Source: a virus. Taken from it: a DNA stretch of 10,032 nt. The DNA lies in the UHGV virus genome UHGV-0102185; one strand, written 5' to 3'. Of this stretch, positions 3,386 through 9,982 are shown piece after piece. The notes under the pieces were generated by a model. It saw only the letters and a list, made by a program, of their open reading frames with translations. It had not been told where the DNA came from and searched no databases. Position 1 is the stretch's first letter. Each line of letters begins with the position of its first letter. The position numbers were made by a program, and so were the translations under genes.

Positions 3386-3815
3386 TGCCGTCACGGTGCT
3401 GAAAACTAACCCCGATATGCTTCGGATATTCGTGGATAACGGGAGTATTGCCTCCACACTGGCGACGTCGCTGTCATTCGAAAAGCGTTACACGCTCAAT
3501 GTCATTGTGACCGACTTTACCGGTGATTTTGACCTGCTCATCGTGCCGGTGCTGGCGTGGCTGCGGGAAAATCAGCCCGACATCATGACCACCGACGCAG
3601 GCCAGAAAAAGGGCTTCACGTTTTATGCAGACATCAACAATGACAGCAGCTTTGATATCAGCATCAGCCTGATGCTGACCGAGCGCACGCTGGTCAGTGA
3701 GGTGGACGGCGCACTGCATGTGAAGAATATCCCGGAACCCCCGCCGCCGGAGCCGGTCACCCGCCCGATGGAGCTTTATATCAATGGCGAACTGGTGAGC
3801 AAGTGGGATGAATGA
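3348..3815 (+). CDS. R: Tail completion protein, P2 gpR-like
   Basis: 155 aa (MLKPDSLRRALTDAVTVLKTNPDMLRIFVDNGSIAS...), size and position matching P2 gpR; stop overlaps the S start (ATGAATGA). Confidence 0.85.
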   Translation: MLKPDSLRRALTDAVTVLKTNPDMLRIFVDNGSIASTLATSLSFEKRYTLNVIVTDFTGDFDLLIVPVLAWLRENQPDIMTTDAGQKKGFTFYADINNDSSFDISISLMLTERTLVSEVDGALHVKNIPEPPPPEPVTRPMELYINGELVSKWDE

Positions 3816-4257
3816 GTTTAAGCGTTTTGAAGACCGGCTGACCGGACTGATTGAGTCGCTGTCACCGTCAGGGCGTCGGCGACTGGCGGTAGATATTGCG
3901 AAGAAACTGCGCCAGCGCCAGCAGCAGCGAATTAAATTACAAAAAGGCCCGGATGGTACGCCGTATGTACCGAGAAAAAACCAACCAGTGCGAAATAAGA
4001 AAGGCCGGATAAAGCGGGAAATGTTTGTGAAATTACGCACTAACCGGTTTATGAAAGCAACAGCTAGCGAGAGTGCGGCGGTGGTGGAGTTTACTGGTAA
4101 GGTTGAGTGTATTGCGAGAGTACATCAATTTGGGTTGGCTGATAAGCCTAGTTACAACAGTAAGGCTGTGGTTTATCCTGTTCGTATACTTATGGGAATC
4201 TCAGAGCGTGATACGAAATTTGTTGAAGAAGTTATTATTCGCTACCTATCTCATTAG
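3808..4257 (+). CDS. S: Tail completion protein, P2 gpS-like, with an AT-richer and probably divergent 3' portion
   Basis: 149 aa (MNEFKRFEDRLTGLIESLSPSGRRRL...VHQFGL...); the N-terminal third is GC-rich like the backbone, while from about 3950 onward composition and codon choice become AT-rich. Confidence 0.85.
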   Translation: MNEFKRFEDRLTGLIESLSPSGRRRLAVDIAKKLRQRQQQRIKLQKGPDGTPYVPRKNQPVRNKKGRIKREMFVKLRTNRFMKATASESAAVVEFTGKVECIARVHQFGLADKPSYNSKAVVYPVRILMGISERDTKFVEEVIIRYLSH

Positions 4258-4302
4258 GGACGATGAAAATATAGTTTCATCAGCTATATTCTAGTATATA
4301 AA

Positions 4303-4337
4303 ATACTAAGGCTACACTAGCCGTGTAGCCTTAGTAT
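4303..4337. terminator. Perfect hairpin (15-bp stem, 5-nt loop) between convergent genes; candidate bidirectional intrinsic terminator
   Basis: ATACTAAGGCTACAC (4303-4317), loop TAGCC, GTGTAGCCTTAGTAT (4323-4337) are exact reverse complements. Lies between the S stop (4257) and the minus-strand gene's stop (4358), in AT-rich flanks, but without a clean poly-U run on either side. Confidence 0.5.
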
Positions 4338-4357
4338 ATGTTTGGGATATTATATAA

Positions 4358-5602
4358 CTAAATCCAGCGAAGGTAGAATAGTAAGTAAGGATCTCTGATG
4401 TCTAATACATCGCTTTCTTGATCCCACTCGATAATACTGCTATTTGCAGCATCGTTGGCAATAGCAGTTGAGTGCTGACATGCACTGGTTATACTAGAAC
4501 CGCTTGGGCTATCGCCATGACATAACGAGGTCACTCGAGATACTAAGTCAGAATAACGAAATGTCAGCGTCGGAGGATTAGAAGCAATGGCTTTTAATAA
4601 AAAGACATAAACATCGCCTTGCCAGCCATCTTTTGATATATATGATTTTCTATCAGAACCACGCACTTTAGGTCCTTCGCGCATTTTATCCACAATCGTG
4701 CTGTAATCTGCTGACTGAAGTGTACGTTTGCACACTCTTTGCAATGTGGCAATATCTTTTTGATATTTTATTGAAGTATCAGAAGTCTCTCTGACATTCA
4801 TTTCAAAACAAGAGTTTAAGCATAAATATTGCATTAGTTGTGGTGAGCCTGCGGACTCTTTTACTAACTCACTTATAACTTCATCAGAGGCATCTATATT
4901 GAGTAGTTTGAATCCTTTCTGAGCAATAATTTTTAAGGTTGATTCATCCCAATAATCAAAATCAATATTAAATATCCGACCTCGTAAGTCAGAGTTACCC
5001 CGAAGAACATCATCAGAATGATATGGCACTGATGCACAAATAAATTTGCAGCCATTAGCTATGGCATCTTTTATTTGTCGTGATAGTTCGGCTTGAGCTT
5101 CTTTAGCAATATAGTGAAAATCATCGATAAAGATAACATAATCTGTGTTTGCGATTTCTCGCTTCATTAGTTGAAAGAGATCTATCGCAAATGATTCTGA
5201 GGTTTGATCTGCTGTACTATAACCAGCGGATGCAGACCCTTTAAGACTACCTTTTGCTAAAATTACACCAGCTTGGGCAGATAATTCTCCTGTACTTGAA
5301 AATGATGAGGTGCCAGTTTTACTTTGAACTTGGGTTACTGGTACACCAAGTATGTCGAAAACGCGCTTCCATAAATCATTAGCAGATTGAACCCCTGCTC
5401 CAGTTACTTCGATTAGCCTCTGGGTTCCAAGTACTTTCTTAACAAAGACAGTTTTTCCTGATTTTGATGGGCCAGAGATAGAAATCAGCATGGTGCCCAT
5501 CTCAAGTGTATCGATTAACTGTTGCTGTTTAGATACTAGGTGATCCTCAACCAGTGTGTGGTTGGGATAACCGCCTGGGATAAAAACCTCTGTCGCCTTC
5601 AT
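4358..5602 (-). CDS. Compact STAND/AAA_16-like P-loop NTPase of unknown function; candidate phage-encoded defence or exclusion protein
   Basis: 414-aa minus-strand ORF in the AT-rich block. Walker A GPSKSGKT (nt 5450-5473), Walker B VIFIDDFH of the hhhhDD type (DD at nt 5120-5125), a possible sensor-1-like KFICASV, and a GSP motif (ESAGSPQLMQYL) about 90 aa further on. A Ser/Thr/Gly-rich insert (about aa 94-135) sits between Walker A and B. No canonical Shine-Dalgarno before the ATG. Confidence 0.7.
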   Translation of the reverse strand: MKATEVFIPGGYPNHTLVEDHLVSKQQQLIDTLEMGTMLISISGPSKSGKTVFVKKVLGTQRLIEVTGAGVQSANDLWKRVFDILGVPVTQVQSKTGTSSFSSTGELSAQAGVILAKGSLKGSASAGYSTADQTSESFAIDLFQLMKREIANTDYVIFIDDFHYIAKEAQAELSRQIKDAIANGCKFICASVPYHSDDVLRGNSDLRGRIFNIDFDYWDESTLKIIAQKGFKLLNIDASDEVISELVKESAGSPQLMQYLCLNSCFEMNVRETSDTSIKYQKDIATLQRVCKRTLQSADYSTIVDKMREGPKVRGSDRKSYISKDGWQGDVYVFLLKAIASNPPTLTFRYSDLVSRVTSLCHGDSPSGSSITSACQHSTAIANDAANSSIIEWDQESDVLDIRDPYLLFYLRWI

Positions 5603-5643
5603 ATATCAACGCCAACATTATTAATGGTATGCCAATTTTACGT

Positions 5644-5661
5644 TGTAAGAGGATCAATACA
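5644..5661 (+). promoter_or_regulatory. TGT-N12-ACA element upstream of V; possible Ogr-type late-activator site (speculative)
   Basis: TGT (5644-5646), 12 nt, ACA (5659-5661), centred about 56 nt upstream of the V start codon. P2 late promoters carry such a partial dyad centred near -55 of the transcription start, so the spacing is not ideal and a chance match is plausible. Confidence 0.2.
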
Positions 5662-5708
5662 AGTTCCATTTATTGCCTGTGAGTGCTGAAAAATTCAATA
5701 TTTGAAAA

Positions 5709-6344
5709 ATGAATATAAATCACTCATTACAAGAGCTTGCGCGTGCACTGCGCAACATGATCCGCACCGGTATTATCGTCGAAACCGACCTTAACGCCGG
5801 TCGCTGCCGTGTGCAGACCGGCGGCATGTGCACCGACTGGCTTCAGTGGCTGACCCATCGTGCCGGACGTTCGCGCACATGGTGGGCACCTTCCGTGGGG
5901 GAACAGGTGCTGATTCTGGCTGTGGGCGGTGAACTCGACACGGCGTTCGTTCTGCCGGGGATTTATTCCGGCGATAACCCCGCGCCGTCTGCGTCGGCGG
6001 ATGCCCTGCATATCCGTTTCCCTGACGGGGCGGTGATTGAGTATGAACCTGAAACCAGTGCACTGACGGTAAGCGGAATTAAAACGGCCAGCGTGACGGC
6101 TTCTGATTCTGTTACTGCCACGGTGCCGGTGGTCATGGTGAAAGCATCAACCCGCGTCACCCTGGACACACCGGAGGTGGTCTGCACCAACAGGCTGATT
6201 ACCGGCACGCTGGAAGTGCAGAAGGGCGGGACGATGCGCGGCAACATTGAACACACCGGCGGTGAACTCTCATCAAACGGTAAGGTACTGCATACCCATA
6301 AACACCCCGGCGACAGTGGCGGCACAACAGGGGGACCTCTATGA
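5709..6344 (+). CDS. V: Baseplate spike/assembly protein, P2 gpV-like
   Basis: 211 aa (…LQELARALRNMIRTGIIVETDLNAGRCRVQTGGMCTDWLQWLTHRAGRSRTWWAPSVGEQV…), matching P2 gpV in length and sequence as I recall it; the first few codons are AT-rich. Confidence 0.9.
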   Translation: MNINHSLQELARALRNMIRTGIIVETDLNAGRCRVQTGGMCTDWLQWLTHRAGRSRTWWAPSVGEQVLILAVGGELDTAFVLPGIYSGDNPAPSASADALHIRFPDGAVIEYEPETSALTVSGIKTASVTASDSVTATVPVVMVKASTRVTLDTPEVVCTNRLITGTLEVQKGGTMRGNIEHTGGELSSNGKVLHTHKHPGDSGGTTGGPL

Positions 6345-6688
6345 CTGCGCGTTATCTCGGAATGAATCGCAGTGATGGCCTGACGGTCACTGACCTTGAG
6401 CATATCAGCCAGAGTATCGGCGATATCCTGCGCACACCGGTCGGCTCACGGGTGATGCGTCGTGATTACGGCTCGTTGCTGGCGTCAATGATTGACCAGC
6501 CGCAGACCCCGGCGCTTGAGTTGCAGATTAAGGTCGCCTGTTACATGGCGGTGCTGAAATGGGAACCCCGCGTCACCCTGTCATCCGTCACCACGGCGCG
6601 CAGTTTTGACGGGCGAATGACAGTTACGTTAACCGGCCAGCACAACGACACCGGCCAGCCACTTTCGTTAACCATCCCTGTGAGTTGA
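6341..6688 (+). CDS. W: Baseplate wedge protein (T4 gp25-like fold), P2 gpW-like
   Basis: 115 aa (MTARYLGMNRSDGLTVTDLEHISQSIGDILRTPVGSRVMRRDYGS...); start overlaps the V stop (ATGA); correct size and position for gpW. Confidence 0.9.
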   Translation: MTARYLGMNRSDGLTVTDLEHISQSIGDILRTPVGSRVMRRDYGSLLASMIDQPQTPALELQIKVACYMAVLKWEPRVTLSSVTTARSFDGRMTVTLTGQHNDTGQPLSLTIPVS

Positions 6689-6692
6689 AACC

Positions 6693-7601
6693 ATGCCGAT
6701 TATCGACCTGAACCAGCTACCCGCACCGGATGTGGTCGAGGAGCTGGACTTTGAAACCATTCTTGCCGAACGCAAGGCGACACTGATTTCCCTTTACCCG
6801 GAAGACCAGCAGGAGGCGGTCGCCCGTACCCTGACGCTGGAATCCGAGCCTCTCGTCAAACTGCTGGAGGAAAATGCTTATCGTGAGCTTATCTGGCGTC
6901 AGCGTGTGAATGAGGCCGCACGGGCGGTGATGCTGGCCTGTGCTGCCGGTAATGACCTTGATGTGATTGGTGCCAATTACAACACCACACGCCTGATTAT
7001 CACCCCGGCAGATGATTCAACCATCCCGCCGACACCGGCCGTGATGGAATCTGACACCGATTATCGTCTGCGTATTCAGCAGGCGTTTGAAGGTTTAAGC
7101 GTCGCCGGGTCGGTGGGTGCCTATCAGTATCATGGCCGCAGTGCCGACGGGCGTGTCGCGGATATCTCTGTCACCAGTCCGTCTCCGGCCTGCGTCACCA
7201 TCTCTGTGCTGTCACGTGAAAATAACGGTGTCGCATCCGAAGACCTGCTGGCGGTGGTGCGTAACGCCCTTAATGGCGAGGACGTCAGGCCGGTGGCCGA
7301 CCGCGTGACCGTGCAGTCTGCCGCCATCGTTGAATACCAGATAAACGCCACGCTTTACCTTTACCCTGGTCCCGAAAGCGAACCCATACGCGCTGCCGCC
7401 GTGAAAAAACTGGAAGCGTACATCACGGCACAGCACCGGCTGGGGCGCGACATCCGTCTGTCTGCCATTTATGCCGCTTTGCATGTGGAAGGCGTGCAGC
7501 GTGTCGAACTGGCTGCACCACTGGCCGACATCGTGCTCAACAATACGCAGGCGTCTTTCTGTACCGAATACAGCGTCGTGACCGGAGGCTCGGATGAGTG
7601 A
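6693..7601 (+). CDS. J: Baseplate assembly protein, P2 gpJ-like
   Basis: 302 aa (MPIIDLNQLPAPDVVEELDFETILAERKATLISLYPEDQQEAVARTLTLESEP...); size and synteny match gpJ. Confidence 0.9.
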   Translation: MPIIDLNQLPAPDVVEELDFETILAERKATLISLYPEDQQEAVARTLTLESEPLVKLLEENAYRELIWRQRVNEAARAVMLACAAGNDLDVIGANYNTTRLIITPADDSTIPPTPAVMESDTDYRLRIQQAFEGLSVAGSVGAYQYHGRSADGRVADISVTSPSPACVTISVLSRENNGVASEDLLAVVRNALNGEDVRPVADRVTVQSAAIVEYQINATLYLYPGPESEPIRAAAVKKLEAYITAQHRLGRDIRLSAIYAALHVEGVQRVELAAPLADIVLNNTQASFCTEYSVVTGGSDE

Positions 7602-8124
7602 TTCGCGACTGCTGCCGACCGGCTCATCACCGCTTGAAGTCGCTGCCGCGAAAGCCTGTGCGGAAATTGAAAAAACGCCGGTCAGTATTCGTGAGTTGTG
7701 GAACCCGGACACCTGCCCGGCAAATCTGCTGCCGTGGCTGGCGTGGGCGTTTTCGGTCGACAGGTGGGATGAAAAGTGGCCGGAAGCGACAAAACGCGCC
7801 GTTATCCGCGATGCCTATTTCATCCACTGTCATAAAGGCACTATAGGCGCAATCCGACGCGTGGTGGAGCCGCTCGGCTATCTCATCAACGTGACGGAGT
7901 GGTGGGAAAACAGTGACCCGCCCGGCACCTTCCGGCTTGATATTGGTGTACTGGAAAGCGGTATCACAGAGGCAATGTATCAGGAAATGGAACGGCTGAT
8001 TGCTGATGCCAAACCTGCAAGCCGCCACCTTATCGGCCTGAACATTACCCGGGACATTCCCGGCTACCTGTTCGCCGGTGGTGTGGCTTACGACGGCGAT
8101 GTAATTACGGTTTACCCCGGATAA
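7594..8124 (+). CDS. I: Baseplate protein, P2 gpI-like
   Basis: 176 aa (MSDSRLLPTGSSPLEVAAAKACAEIEKTPVSIRELWNPDTCPANLLPWLAWAFSVDRWDE...); overlaps the J 3' end by 8 nt; size and synteny match gpI. Confidence 0.9.
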   Translation: MSDSRLLPTGSSPLEVAAAKACAEIEKTPVSIRELWNPDTCPANLLPWLAWAFSVDRWDEKWPEATKRAVIRDAYFIHCHKGTIGAIRRVVEPLGYLINVTEWWENSDPPGTFRLDIGVLESGITEAMYQEMERLIADAKPASRHLIGLNITRDIPGYLFAGGVAYDGDVITVYPG

Positions 8125-8134
8125 GTGAGGTATA

Positions 8135-9982
8135 ATGAGCACAAAATTCAAAACCGTTATCACCACTGCCGGTGCAGCAAAGCTGGCAGCGGCAACCGCG
8201 CCGGGAGGGCGGAAGGTCAACATTACCACGATGGCCGTCGGGGATGGCGGTGGTAAATTGCCTGTCCCGGATGCCGGACAGACCGGACTTATCCATGAAG
8301 TCTGGCGACATGCGCTGAACAAAATCAGCCAGGACAAACGAAACAGTAATTATATTATCGCAGAGCTGGTTATTCCGCCGGAGGTGGGCGGTTTCTGGAT
8401 GCGTGAGCTTGGCCTGTACGATGATGCGGGAACATTAATTGCCGTGGCGAACATGGCCGAAAGTTATAAGCCTGCCCTTGCCGAAGGCTCAGGGCGTTCG
8501 CAGACCTGCCGCATGGTCATCATCGTCAGCAGTGTGGCCTCAGTGGCGCTGACCATTGACACCACAACGGTGATGGCGACGCAGGATTACGTTGATGACA
8601 AAATTGCAGAGCACGAACAGTCACGACGTCACCCGGACGCCTCGCTGACCGCAAAAGGTTTTACTCAGTTAAGCAGTGCGACCAACAGCACGTCTGAAAC
8701 ACTGGCCGCAACGCCGAAAGCGGTAAAGGCCGCTTATGATCTTGCTAACGGGAAATATACCGCGCAGGATGCCACCACAGCGCGAAAAGGCCTTGTCCAG
8801 CTCAGTAGCGCCACCAACAGTGATTCTGAAACGCAGGCCGCAACACCAAAAGCGGTGAAGTCTGCCTATGACAATGCTGAAAAACGTCTTCAGAAAGATC
8901 AGAACGGTGCGGATATTCCTGATAAAGGACGCTTCCTGAGTAACATTAATGTTTACAGCAAAGGTGAAGTGGATAAGAAAAAGGGAATGCGAAAGTATTC
9001 GTTTGCAGCCCCTGCAAATGTCGTTGCCGGGAAGTGGTATCCCGTTATCTTTCGCCGTGCTGCCAGCCTTTCAGGAGAAATGGCATCCCGCGTCGTTATT
9101 TCCACTGGTTGTTATAACAGCGATTATGTAATGAATAACTGCGAGTTTAATGGCATGGTTATGCCCGGAGGCTGGACTGATCGTGGTTCATATGCGGCAG
9201 GTTATTTCTGGACGTATCAGACTAATGAGCGTTCAATCCATTCCATTGTTACAAGCCTGAAAGATGATGATGTATGTAGTGTTTTTTATGTTGAAGCCAG
9301 AGCTTTCCCTGTGCAAATTCTTGCAGAGGAAGGGCTAACGGTTATTGTTCCGACAGAGGATTATGTCGTCGGTCAAACGACATATAAGTGGGGGGCAACT
9401 AATCCTGCTACAGAAAGCACGAACGCACAGGCTATTCTGGATTTTAAAAATGGGCGCGGTTATTACTGCTCACATCCATTTATTTCCAGCCTTTCGGGAA
9501 ATGCTGCAACAGCAACGAAGTTAGCGAACGCAAGAAATATTAATGGTGTCAGATTTGATGGCTCTGCTGATATAAATATTAATACACTGGTATCCAGAAA
9601 CCGTGTTACTGCATTAGGTGGGAGCGTAAAGGGGACACCAGGTATTCAGATGTATGAGGCATACAACAATGGCTACCCAACAGCCTATGGTAATGTGCTT
9701 CATCTCACTGGCGTAACCGCAGTAGGAGAGGGTGAGTTACTTATTGGCTGGAGTGGAACCAGCGGTGCTCATGCTCCGGCATATATTCGCTCCCGACGAG
9801 ATACCACAGATGCTAACTGGTCTGGATGGGCGCAACTATATACAACTGCTCATAAACCCTCAGCGGGAGATGTTGGTGCATACACCAAAGCTGAATCAGA
9901 TTCACGTTATGTGAGAGACATGCGGCTGGGCGGTGCATCTACATATAAACCAGCAAATAATGGTACTACATGGACGCGGTGA
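8135..9982 (+). CDS. H: Tail fibre protein, P2 gpH-like, with a divergent C-terminal region
   Basis: 615 aa; N-terminus (MSTKFKTVITTAGAAKLAAATAPGGRKVNITTMAVGDGGG...) typical of P2-family fibres; GTGAGG at 8125-8130 upstream; two fibre-repeat copies; composition becomes AT-richer from about 8900. Confidence 0.9.
   Translation: MSTKFKTVITTAGAAKLAAATAPGGRKVNITTMAVGDGGGKLPVPDAGQTGLIHEVWRHALNKISQDKRNSNYIIAELVIPPEVGGFWMRELGLYDDAGTLIAVANMAESYKPALAEGSGRSQTCRMVIIVSSVASVALTIDTTTVMATQDYVDDKIAEHEQSRRHPDASLTAKGFTQLSSATNSTSETLAATPKAVKAAYDLANGKYTAQDATTARKGLVQLSSATNSDSETQAATPKAVKSAYDNAEKRLQKDQNGADIPDKGRFLSNINVYSKGEVDKKKGMRKYSFAAPANVVAGKWYPVIFRRAASLSGEMASRVVISTGCYNSDYVMNNCEFNGMVMPGGWTDRGSYAAGYFWTYQTNERSIHSIVTSLKDDDVCSVFYVEARAFPVQILAEEGLTVIVPTEDYVVGQTTYKWGATNPATESTNAQAILDFKNGRGYYCSHPFISSLSGNAATATKLANARNINGVRFDGSADININTLVSRNRVTALGGSVKGTPGIQMYEAYNNGYPTAYGNVLHLTGVTAVGEGELLIGWSGTSGAHAPAYIRSRRDTTDANWSGWAQLYTTAHKPSAGDVGAYTKAESDSRYVRDMRLGGASTYKPANNGTTWTR
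8654..8740 (+). repeat. Intragenic tail-fibre repeat, copy 1 (KGFTQLSSATNSTSETLAATPKAVKAAYD)
   Basis: 29-aa motif repeated 44 aa further on with roughly 80% amino-acid identity; resembles the conserved phage tail-fibre repeat seen in P2 H and lambdoid side fibres. Confidence 0.7.
8786..8872 (+). repeat. Intragenic tail-fibre repeat, copy 2 (KGLVQLSSATNSDSETQAATPKAVKSAYD)
   Basis: Second copy of the same motif inside H, in frame. Confidence 0.7.

Follow-up and report, generated by a model that had tools for sequence, protein, structure and literature searches.

The closest described counterpart of the locus studied here is the late promoter PV of phage P2. In the P2 record (NC_001895), an "activator binding site; activation of pV promoter" is annotated at 10239-10266, and the transcription start of the V operon is annotated at 10308, which is the first base of the V coding sequence. 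The annotated leaders of the other late operons in this record are 23-40 nt. A passage of Shell et al. 2015 (PMC4633059) counts P2 as one of the few sources of leaderless genes in E. coli and cites Christie and Calendar 1985 for the leaderless P2 gene; the P2 V start site as used here rests on the GenBank annotation together with this secondary citation. The late-promoter consensus is TGT-N12-ACA (PMC3931495), a partial dyad whose centre lies about 55 nt ahead of the transcription start in promoters of the P2 type. P2 PO and PF read TGT-N12-CCA and PV reads TGT-N11-ACA, indicating that the right half-site is loosely defined. As in our locus, P2 PV lies between S (or its cargo slot) and V, next to a divergent non-essential gene (P2 orf30).

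A weak sigma70 core, and a half-site of the TGT type some 65 nt upstream of the start, are common to P2 PO/PP and PF, P4 Psid and PLL, the B-dependent promoters of phage 186 and the locus described here. The transcripts of P2 PO/PP and PF and of the Ogr/Delta/B relatives carry leaders of 23-40 nt and a Shine-Dalgarno sequence, unlike the predicted V mRNA of our locus. At P2 PO/PP, one activator site is able to serve two divergent promoters; the partner there is a second late operon, whereas here it is a cargo gene that is presumably expressed in the lysogen. In E. coli, mobile elements provide examples of leaderless mRNAs, namely lambda cI (from PRM), Tn1721 tetR and P2 V, and these have a 5ʹ-terminal AUG and no Shine-Dalgarno, as predicted here, and compared with these three the 5ʹ end in our locus is placed by promoter geometry.

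We analyzed a stretch of 10,032 nt from the virus genome UHGV-0102185 (hereafter the window), which is the late region of a P2-like (Peduovirus) prophage. The spacer between the cargo gene and V is very probably the PV late promoter of this prophage, arranged back to back with a divergent cargo promoter region and followed by a leaderless V. The activator box, the weak core promoter and the predicted leaderless V start belong to the known system, and the PV sequence itself is a new variant. The surroundings of the promoter are as follows:

Up to 4257: genes M, L, X, Y, K, lysA/B/C, R and S, upstream of a low-G+C insert
4303-4337: hairpin with a 15-bp stem and T-rich flanks, between the S stop (4257) and the cargo stop (4358)
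4358-5602, minus strand: cargo gene encoding a 414-aa P-loop/AAA protein, PADLOC candidate PDC-S59, with its ATG at 5602-5600
5603-5708: spacer of 106 nt between the cargo ORF and V
5709-6344, plus strand: gene V, baseplate spike, 211 aa, after the insert
5709-9982: V, W, J, I, H, one of the four late operons, directly 3ʹ of the promoter spacer

The G+C content was 0.31 in the spacer and 0.38 in 4258-5725, compared with 0.56 in the rest of the window, the phage backbone, which was in agreement with the preliminary description of an AT-rich divergent control region of 106 nt at 5603-5708. The same 2-kb segment (4000-6000) was present in 12 complete E. coli genomes. In E. coli KW21, the identical 4000-6000 segment lies within a complete P2-like prophage that encodes ogrK and whose PO/PP region is identical to that of P2. 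The window itself stops short of ogr, and a full-length copy of it was not found in complete E. coli genomes (best coverage 88%), so ogr is shown through a prophage that shares only the 2-kb segment. The best E. coli genome matches to the window end at about 8860-8878, indicating that the distal part of the tail fibre is a different allele. In the KW21 prophage, the PF late promoter (L084 27490-27620) retains the ATTGTG half-site and the P2-like sequence downstream of it, and a recombinase gene of the invertase type, whose end is 59 nt from the sheath gene, takes the place of the DNA to the left. No RNA family from Rfam was detected in 4200-5900 at E<=1.

In the spacer and at its junction with V, the following elements were assigned:

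5635-5662, minus strand: sigma70-like cargo promoter candidate, TTGTAT (5662-5657), 16 nt, TAAAAT (5640-5635), from a relaxed scan (8/12)
5640-5667, plus strand: predicted Ogr-type activator binding region of the V late promoter, transferred from the P2 annotation by distance to the ATG
5642-5662, plus strand: partial dyad GTTGT-N12-ACAA, containing TGT-N12-ACA (5644-5661), from a motif search
5673-5678, plus strand: -35-like hexamer TTGCCT (4/6) of the V late promoter, at -36 to -31 from the ATG
5696-5702, plus strand: -10-like element CAATAT/AATATT, ending 6-7 nt before the V ATG
5709, plus strand: predicted transcription start of the V operon at the A of the V ATG, from the P2 annotation, the promoter geometry, the missing Shine-Dalgarno and an unpaired 5ʹ end

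The predicted activator region, the equivalent of P2 10239-10266, extends from -69 to -42 relative to the V ATG (5709), and the dyad is centred at -56.5. The motif search returned TGT-N12-ACA at the position that had been described for it. This motif occurred three times in the window against 2.87 expected, which is no excess over chance, and it is therefore unusable as evidence by itself. The extended form GTTGT-N12-ACAA was unique in the window, where 0.07 occurrences were expected, and was present at least once in 15 of 200 shuffles. When the window was scored with a 24-nt matrix of the activator box alone, built from the V-upstream family, the dyad ranked 5th-6th at 8.0-8.4 bits, inside the shuffle range and below the minimum of the training set (10.0 bits; median 20.7 bits), indicating that the activator box of the window is a weak sequence match to the family. 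The box positions that fitted the family profile were GTTGT, A7, A14, A16, A18 and A19, and the others differed. As a site finder, the box matrix alone failed to single out the dyad, whereas a matrix of the whole promoter succeeded.

A second TGT-N12-ACA was located at 9651-9668 (region 9648-9671), within the low-G+C distal part of the tail-fibre gene H, and this region scored 11.3 bits with the activator-box matrix on the minus strand. Promoter context was looked for at 9648-9671 and none was seen; this activator-like site is probably due to chance.

The V-upstream sample comprised 152 regions from IMG/VR contigs, one-genome-per-species bacterial contigs and four loci with diverged cargo homologues, which were reduced to 67 classes with <75% identity over -100 to -16, representing P2-like phages of many Enterobacterales. 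The aligned consensus of the 67 classes was G-TTGT-gtcA-N6-A-n-(A/C)AAA-C. In 31 classes TTGT started at -66 and in a further 25 at -65 (together 56/67), against a background of about 1.1 per position. The family -35 consensus, ATTGCCGC, was found at the same offset as TTGCCT in the window, and the most frequent -10 was CATCCT at -13 or -12. The TTGT and the two hexamers shifted jointly, being placed at either (-66, -36, -13) or (-65, -35, -12), and the register of the window (-66, -36, -13) was that of P2 and of the largest class. As the box, -35 and -10 move in register, the promoter acts as a rigid unit locked to the V ATG; judged from these alignments, such an ATG-locked promoter is what a leaderless design would predict. 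When a 62-nt matrix covering the box, -35 and -10 was trained on 57 other classes, with the window's own class left out, the only positive match in the window was at 5642 (+) with 11.0 bits, compared with -0.6 for the next best match and a maximum of 7.0 bits in 60 shuffles. The family has conserved the motif together with its placement and the register of the promoter, and V lacks a Shine-Dalgarno. The proposals that the spacer houses the late promoter of the V operon and that the TGT/ACA dyad is an Ogr-type box were thus supported, the distance to the ATG being that of P2 and of most relatives.

On the plus strand, the sole candidate returned by the relaxed scan in the spacer was TTGCCT, 17-18 nt and CAATAT/AATATT; the consensus promoter scan at its threshold (9 of 12) gave no match inside the spacer on either strand. 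P2 PV shares the offsets of the window from the V ATG (TTGT at -66 to -63, -35 at -36 and -10 at -13 to -8), and the -10 is of the CAAT type in both, CAATCT in P2 and CAATAT in the window. Outside these short elements, however, the window sequence is unrelated to P2 PV, and homology comes back only inside V, where megablast similarity to P2 and its relatives resumes at 5726, 18 nt into the gene. The window further differs in having a perfect TGT-N12-ACA dyad where P2 PV has TGT-N11-ACA, a better -35 (TTGCCT versus ATAGCA/TAGCAT) and a longer spacer to the divergent gene (106 nt versus 83 nt).

A perfect palindrome at 5694-5706, TTCAA-TAT-TTGAA, was read from the sequence and falls on the -10 and the start predicted for PV. 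The repeat tool did not return it at seed 6, and it could be either chance in A+T-rich DNA or a small operator. The inverted-repeat search returned only a trivial AT palindrome at the cargo start.

V has an ATG start codon without upstream Shine-Dalgarno complementarity. The duplex energy with the 16S 3ʹ end was +0.4 kcal/mol, a weaker pairing than at any other of the 15 starts in the window; the cargo gene was next with -1.5 kcal/mol, while the other 13 starts ranged from -2.2 to -9.7 kcal/mol. These values confirmed that neither gene has a strong ribosome-binding site and that no canonical Shine-Dalgarno precedes the ATG of the cargo NTPase, as noted in the preliminary description. Among the 67 classes, a Shine-Dalgarno of -6 kcal/mol or better before V was present in only one, and P2 V, with its start annotated on the ATG, likewise has none. 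The first 14 nt of the predicted V mRNA were unpaired in the minimum-energy fold. By analogy with P2, the V mRNA is predicted to be leaderless, with its 5ʹ end at the start codon. The earlier reasoning that a dyad about 56 nt from the V ATG implies an almost leaderless mRNA therefore holds, but the difficulty seen in it does not, as this is the documented state for P2 V. In the same way, the missing ribosome-binding site of V had been called unusual, yet it is to be expected, since a leaderless design is known for P2 V and the P2 record puts the start on the first base of V.

In PADLOC, the cargo protein clearly matched the defence candidate PDC-S59 (E = 3e-31). Only weak, sub-threshold AAA/P-loop matches were obtained with Pfam; neither a Pfam nor an NCBIfam family reached its threshold, and no NCBIfam name was assigned. 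Homologues in the protein collection numbered 1707 and were spread across many phyla, including members from Serratia, Aeromonas, Acidithiobacillus, Chloroflexi and Desulfuromonas. The best 120 of the 1707 had lengths of 414-447 aa, in most cases 414-420 aa, and aligned over 100% of the query at 54-78% identity. The cluster of cargo proteins that are 100% identical to that of the window carries the name Escherichia fergusonii. Four homologues with 71-78% identity were all located in the S-V slot and divergent from V; their Shine-Dalgarno energies were -3.1 to -6.5 kcal/mol, making the value of the window the weakest of the five.

On the minus strand, the best promoter candidate was TTGTAT-16-TAAAAT, which at 8/12 remained under the scanner threshold of 9, consistent with the preliminary description of only weak sigma70-like hexamers on this strand. 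Its -35 is the reverse complement of the right half-site of the dyad, and its -10 lies just past the left half-site and ends 32 nt before the cargo ATG. The transcript is predicted to start near 5628, with a leader of about 26 nt that is A+T-rich and less structured than shuffles (z = +1.4), which would be compatible with initiation independent of Shine-Dalgarno pairing. All five homologous modules had a TTGTnn-17-nAnnnT pair, located 25-33 nt upstream of the cargo ATG. The layout overlapping the dyad was also present in the Serratia homologue L090 (TTGTAA-17-TATTTT) and in L086 (TTGTTC-17-CATCTT). In L085 and L088, which have spacers of 206-211 nt, TTGTnT-17-TAAnTT is positioned 29-32 nt before the cargo ATG, away from PV. 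In the S-V slot, the distance between the start of a divergent cargo gene and the V ATG is often as short as 83-132 nt, and cargo promoters therefore commonly overlap PV. We tentatively consider, as an unlikely though not negligible extension, that the dyad doubles as the core of the cargo promoter and that late Ogr binding turns V on while occluding the divergent defence-candidate gene.

How much of the dyad belongs to the cargo gene bears on the first of the rival explanations. The dyad might mainly or only be the sigma70 core of the cargo promoter (TTGTAT/TAAAAT), with its likeness to an Ogr box a by-product and V activated elsewhere. The coincidence of the best minus-strand candidate with the dyad would fit this explanation, as would the weak score of the box on the family matrix and the occurrence of the TTGTnn/nAnnnT pair in all five modules, including L085 and L088, where it is far from PV. 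The ACAA half-site could accordingly be kept by the cargo promoter instead of Ogr. However, GTTGT is at the modal offset of the family and in register with the -35 and -10, an unlikely accident for an element that serves the cargo gene only, and the spacer offers no other plus-strand candidate. The two roles are, moreover, compatible with each other. We therefore regard a purely cargo-directed dyad as very unlikely and retain the reading of the spacer as a PV late promoter.

The other two explanations concern the 5ʹ ends of V and of the cargo coding sequence. The V mRNA might have a leader, either from an upstream start or from read-through, and be translated independently of a Shine-Dalgarno on an A+T-rich leader. 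The V start is placed by prediction, and the V ATG is preceded by 25 nt of A+T-rich sequence on which S1-dependent initiation could take place; nevertheless, the plus strand offers a single sigma70-like pair, which ends 6-7 nt from the ATG, P2 has the matching register with the start annotated on the ATG, and the ATG-locked register in 56/67 classes fits the leaderless prediction. Read-through from S is opposed by the strong 4303-4337 hairpin and by the convergent cargo gene. A leadered V mRNA is very improbable in our view. As for the cargo protein, the suggestion that it begins at the internal M35 or M38 would make the Shine-Dalgarno of M1 irrelevant, and the very weak duplex before M1 (-1.5 kcal/mol) speaks for it. 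In a 13-sequence alignment, however, nine residues within 1-34 were invariant (F7, P9, P13, T16, H21, L22, K25, L29 and D31), and neither M35 nor M38 was conserved. With an internal start, moreover, no more than 6-9 residues would precede the Walker A loop (G44-T51), and such a start disagrees with the full-coverage homologues of 414-420 aa and with the PADLOC profile, whose position 37 aligns to cargo residue 37 with no offset. The M35/M38 start, which we hold to be highly improbable, was rejected. Given the conservation of residues 1-34 in distant homologues, the annotated start of the cargo protein at M1 (ATG 5602-5600) is correct.

Under the PV late promoter reading with a leaderless V, the phage zinc-finger activator Ogr would bind GTTGT-N12-ACAA (5642-5662), about 56 nt upstream of the start, in the late phase, and would recruit sigma70 RNA polymerase to the weak core formed by TTGCCT, 17-18 nt and CAATAT/AATATT. 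The first transcribed base would be the A of the V ATG (5709) or a base no more than 1 nt away, which would yield a leaderless V-W-J-I-H mRNA from which V would be translated at the 5ʹ-terminal AUG without a Shine-Dalgarno. The cargo gene would be translated from M1 and probably transcribed from a weak sigma70 promoter overlapping the dyad, and its translation would proceed from a leader that is short, A+T-rich and little structured and has next to no Shine-Dalgarno. The start site on the V ATG and the dependence on Ogr are taken from the P2 record and the literature, and we infer that both would hold for the variant in the window.

Among 120 loci surveyed, the S-V slot was empty in 70, occupied by divergent cargo in 36 and by co-directional cargo in 14. 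V codons 2-7 of the window differ from those of P2 (MNINHSL versus MNTLANI). The S allele (3808-4257) diverges from P2 S after about residue 26, and the mosaic joints thus lie inside the flanking genes. Because the joints are inside S and V, the exchanged module appears to consist of part of S, the cargo gene, PV and the 5ʹ end of V. The hairpin at 4303-4337 is likely a two-way terminator that closes both the O operon and the cargo transcript; in P2, the O-operon terminator is annotated at the equivalent place.

In annotations of P2-like prophages, the V operon should accordingly be given a leaderless start, and an absent ribosome-binding site at V is no sign of a wrong start codon. In the loci surveyed, a late promoter locked to the V ATG always accompanies the S-V slot, either retained or brought in as the slot's own copy, and it is swapped along with the first V codons. 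Cargo engineering in this slot must therefore spare about 70 nt upstream of V. The possible coupling of Ogr binding to cargo shut-off is the only part able to add new biology; if true, a reciprocal Ogr switch could be general to the S-V slot, given the gaps of 83-132 nt between divergent cargo genes and V.
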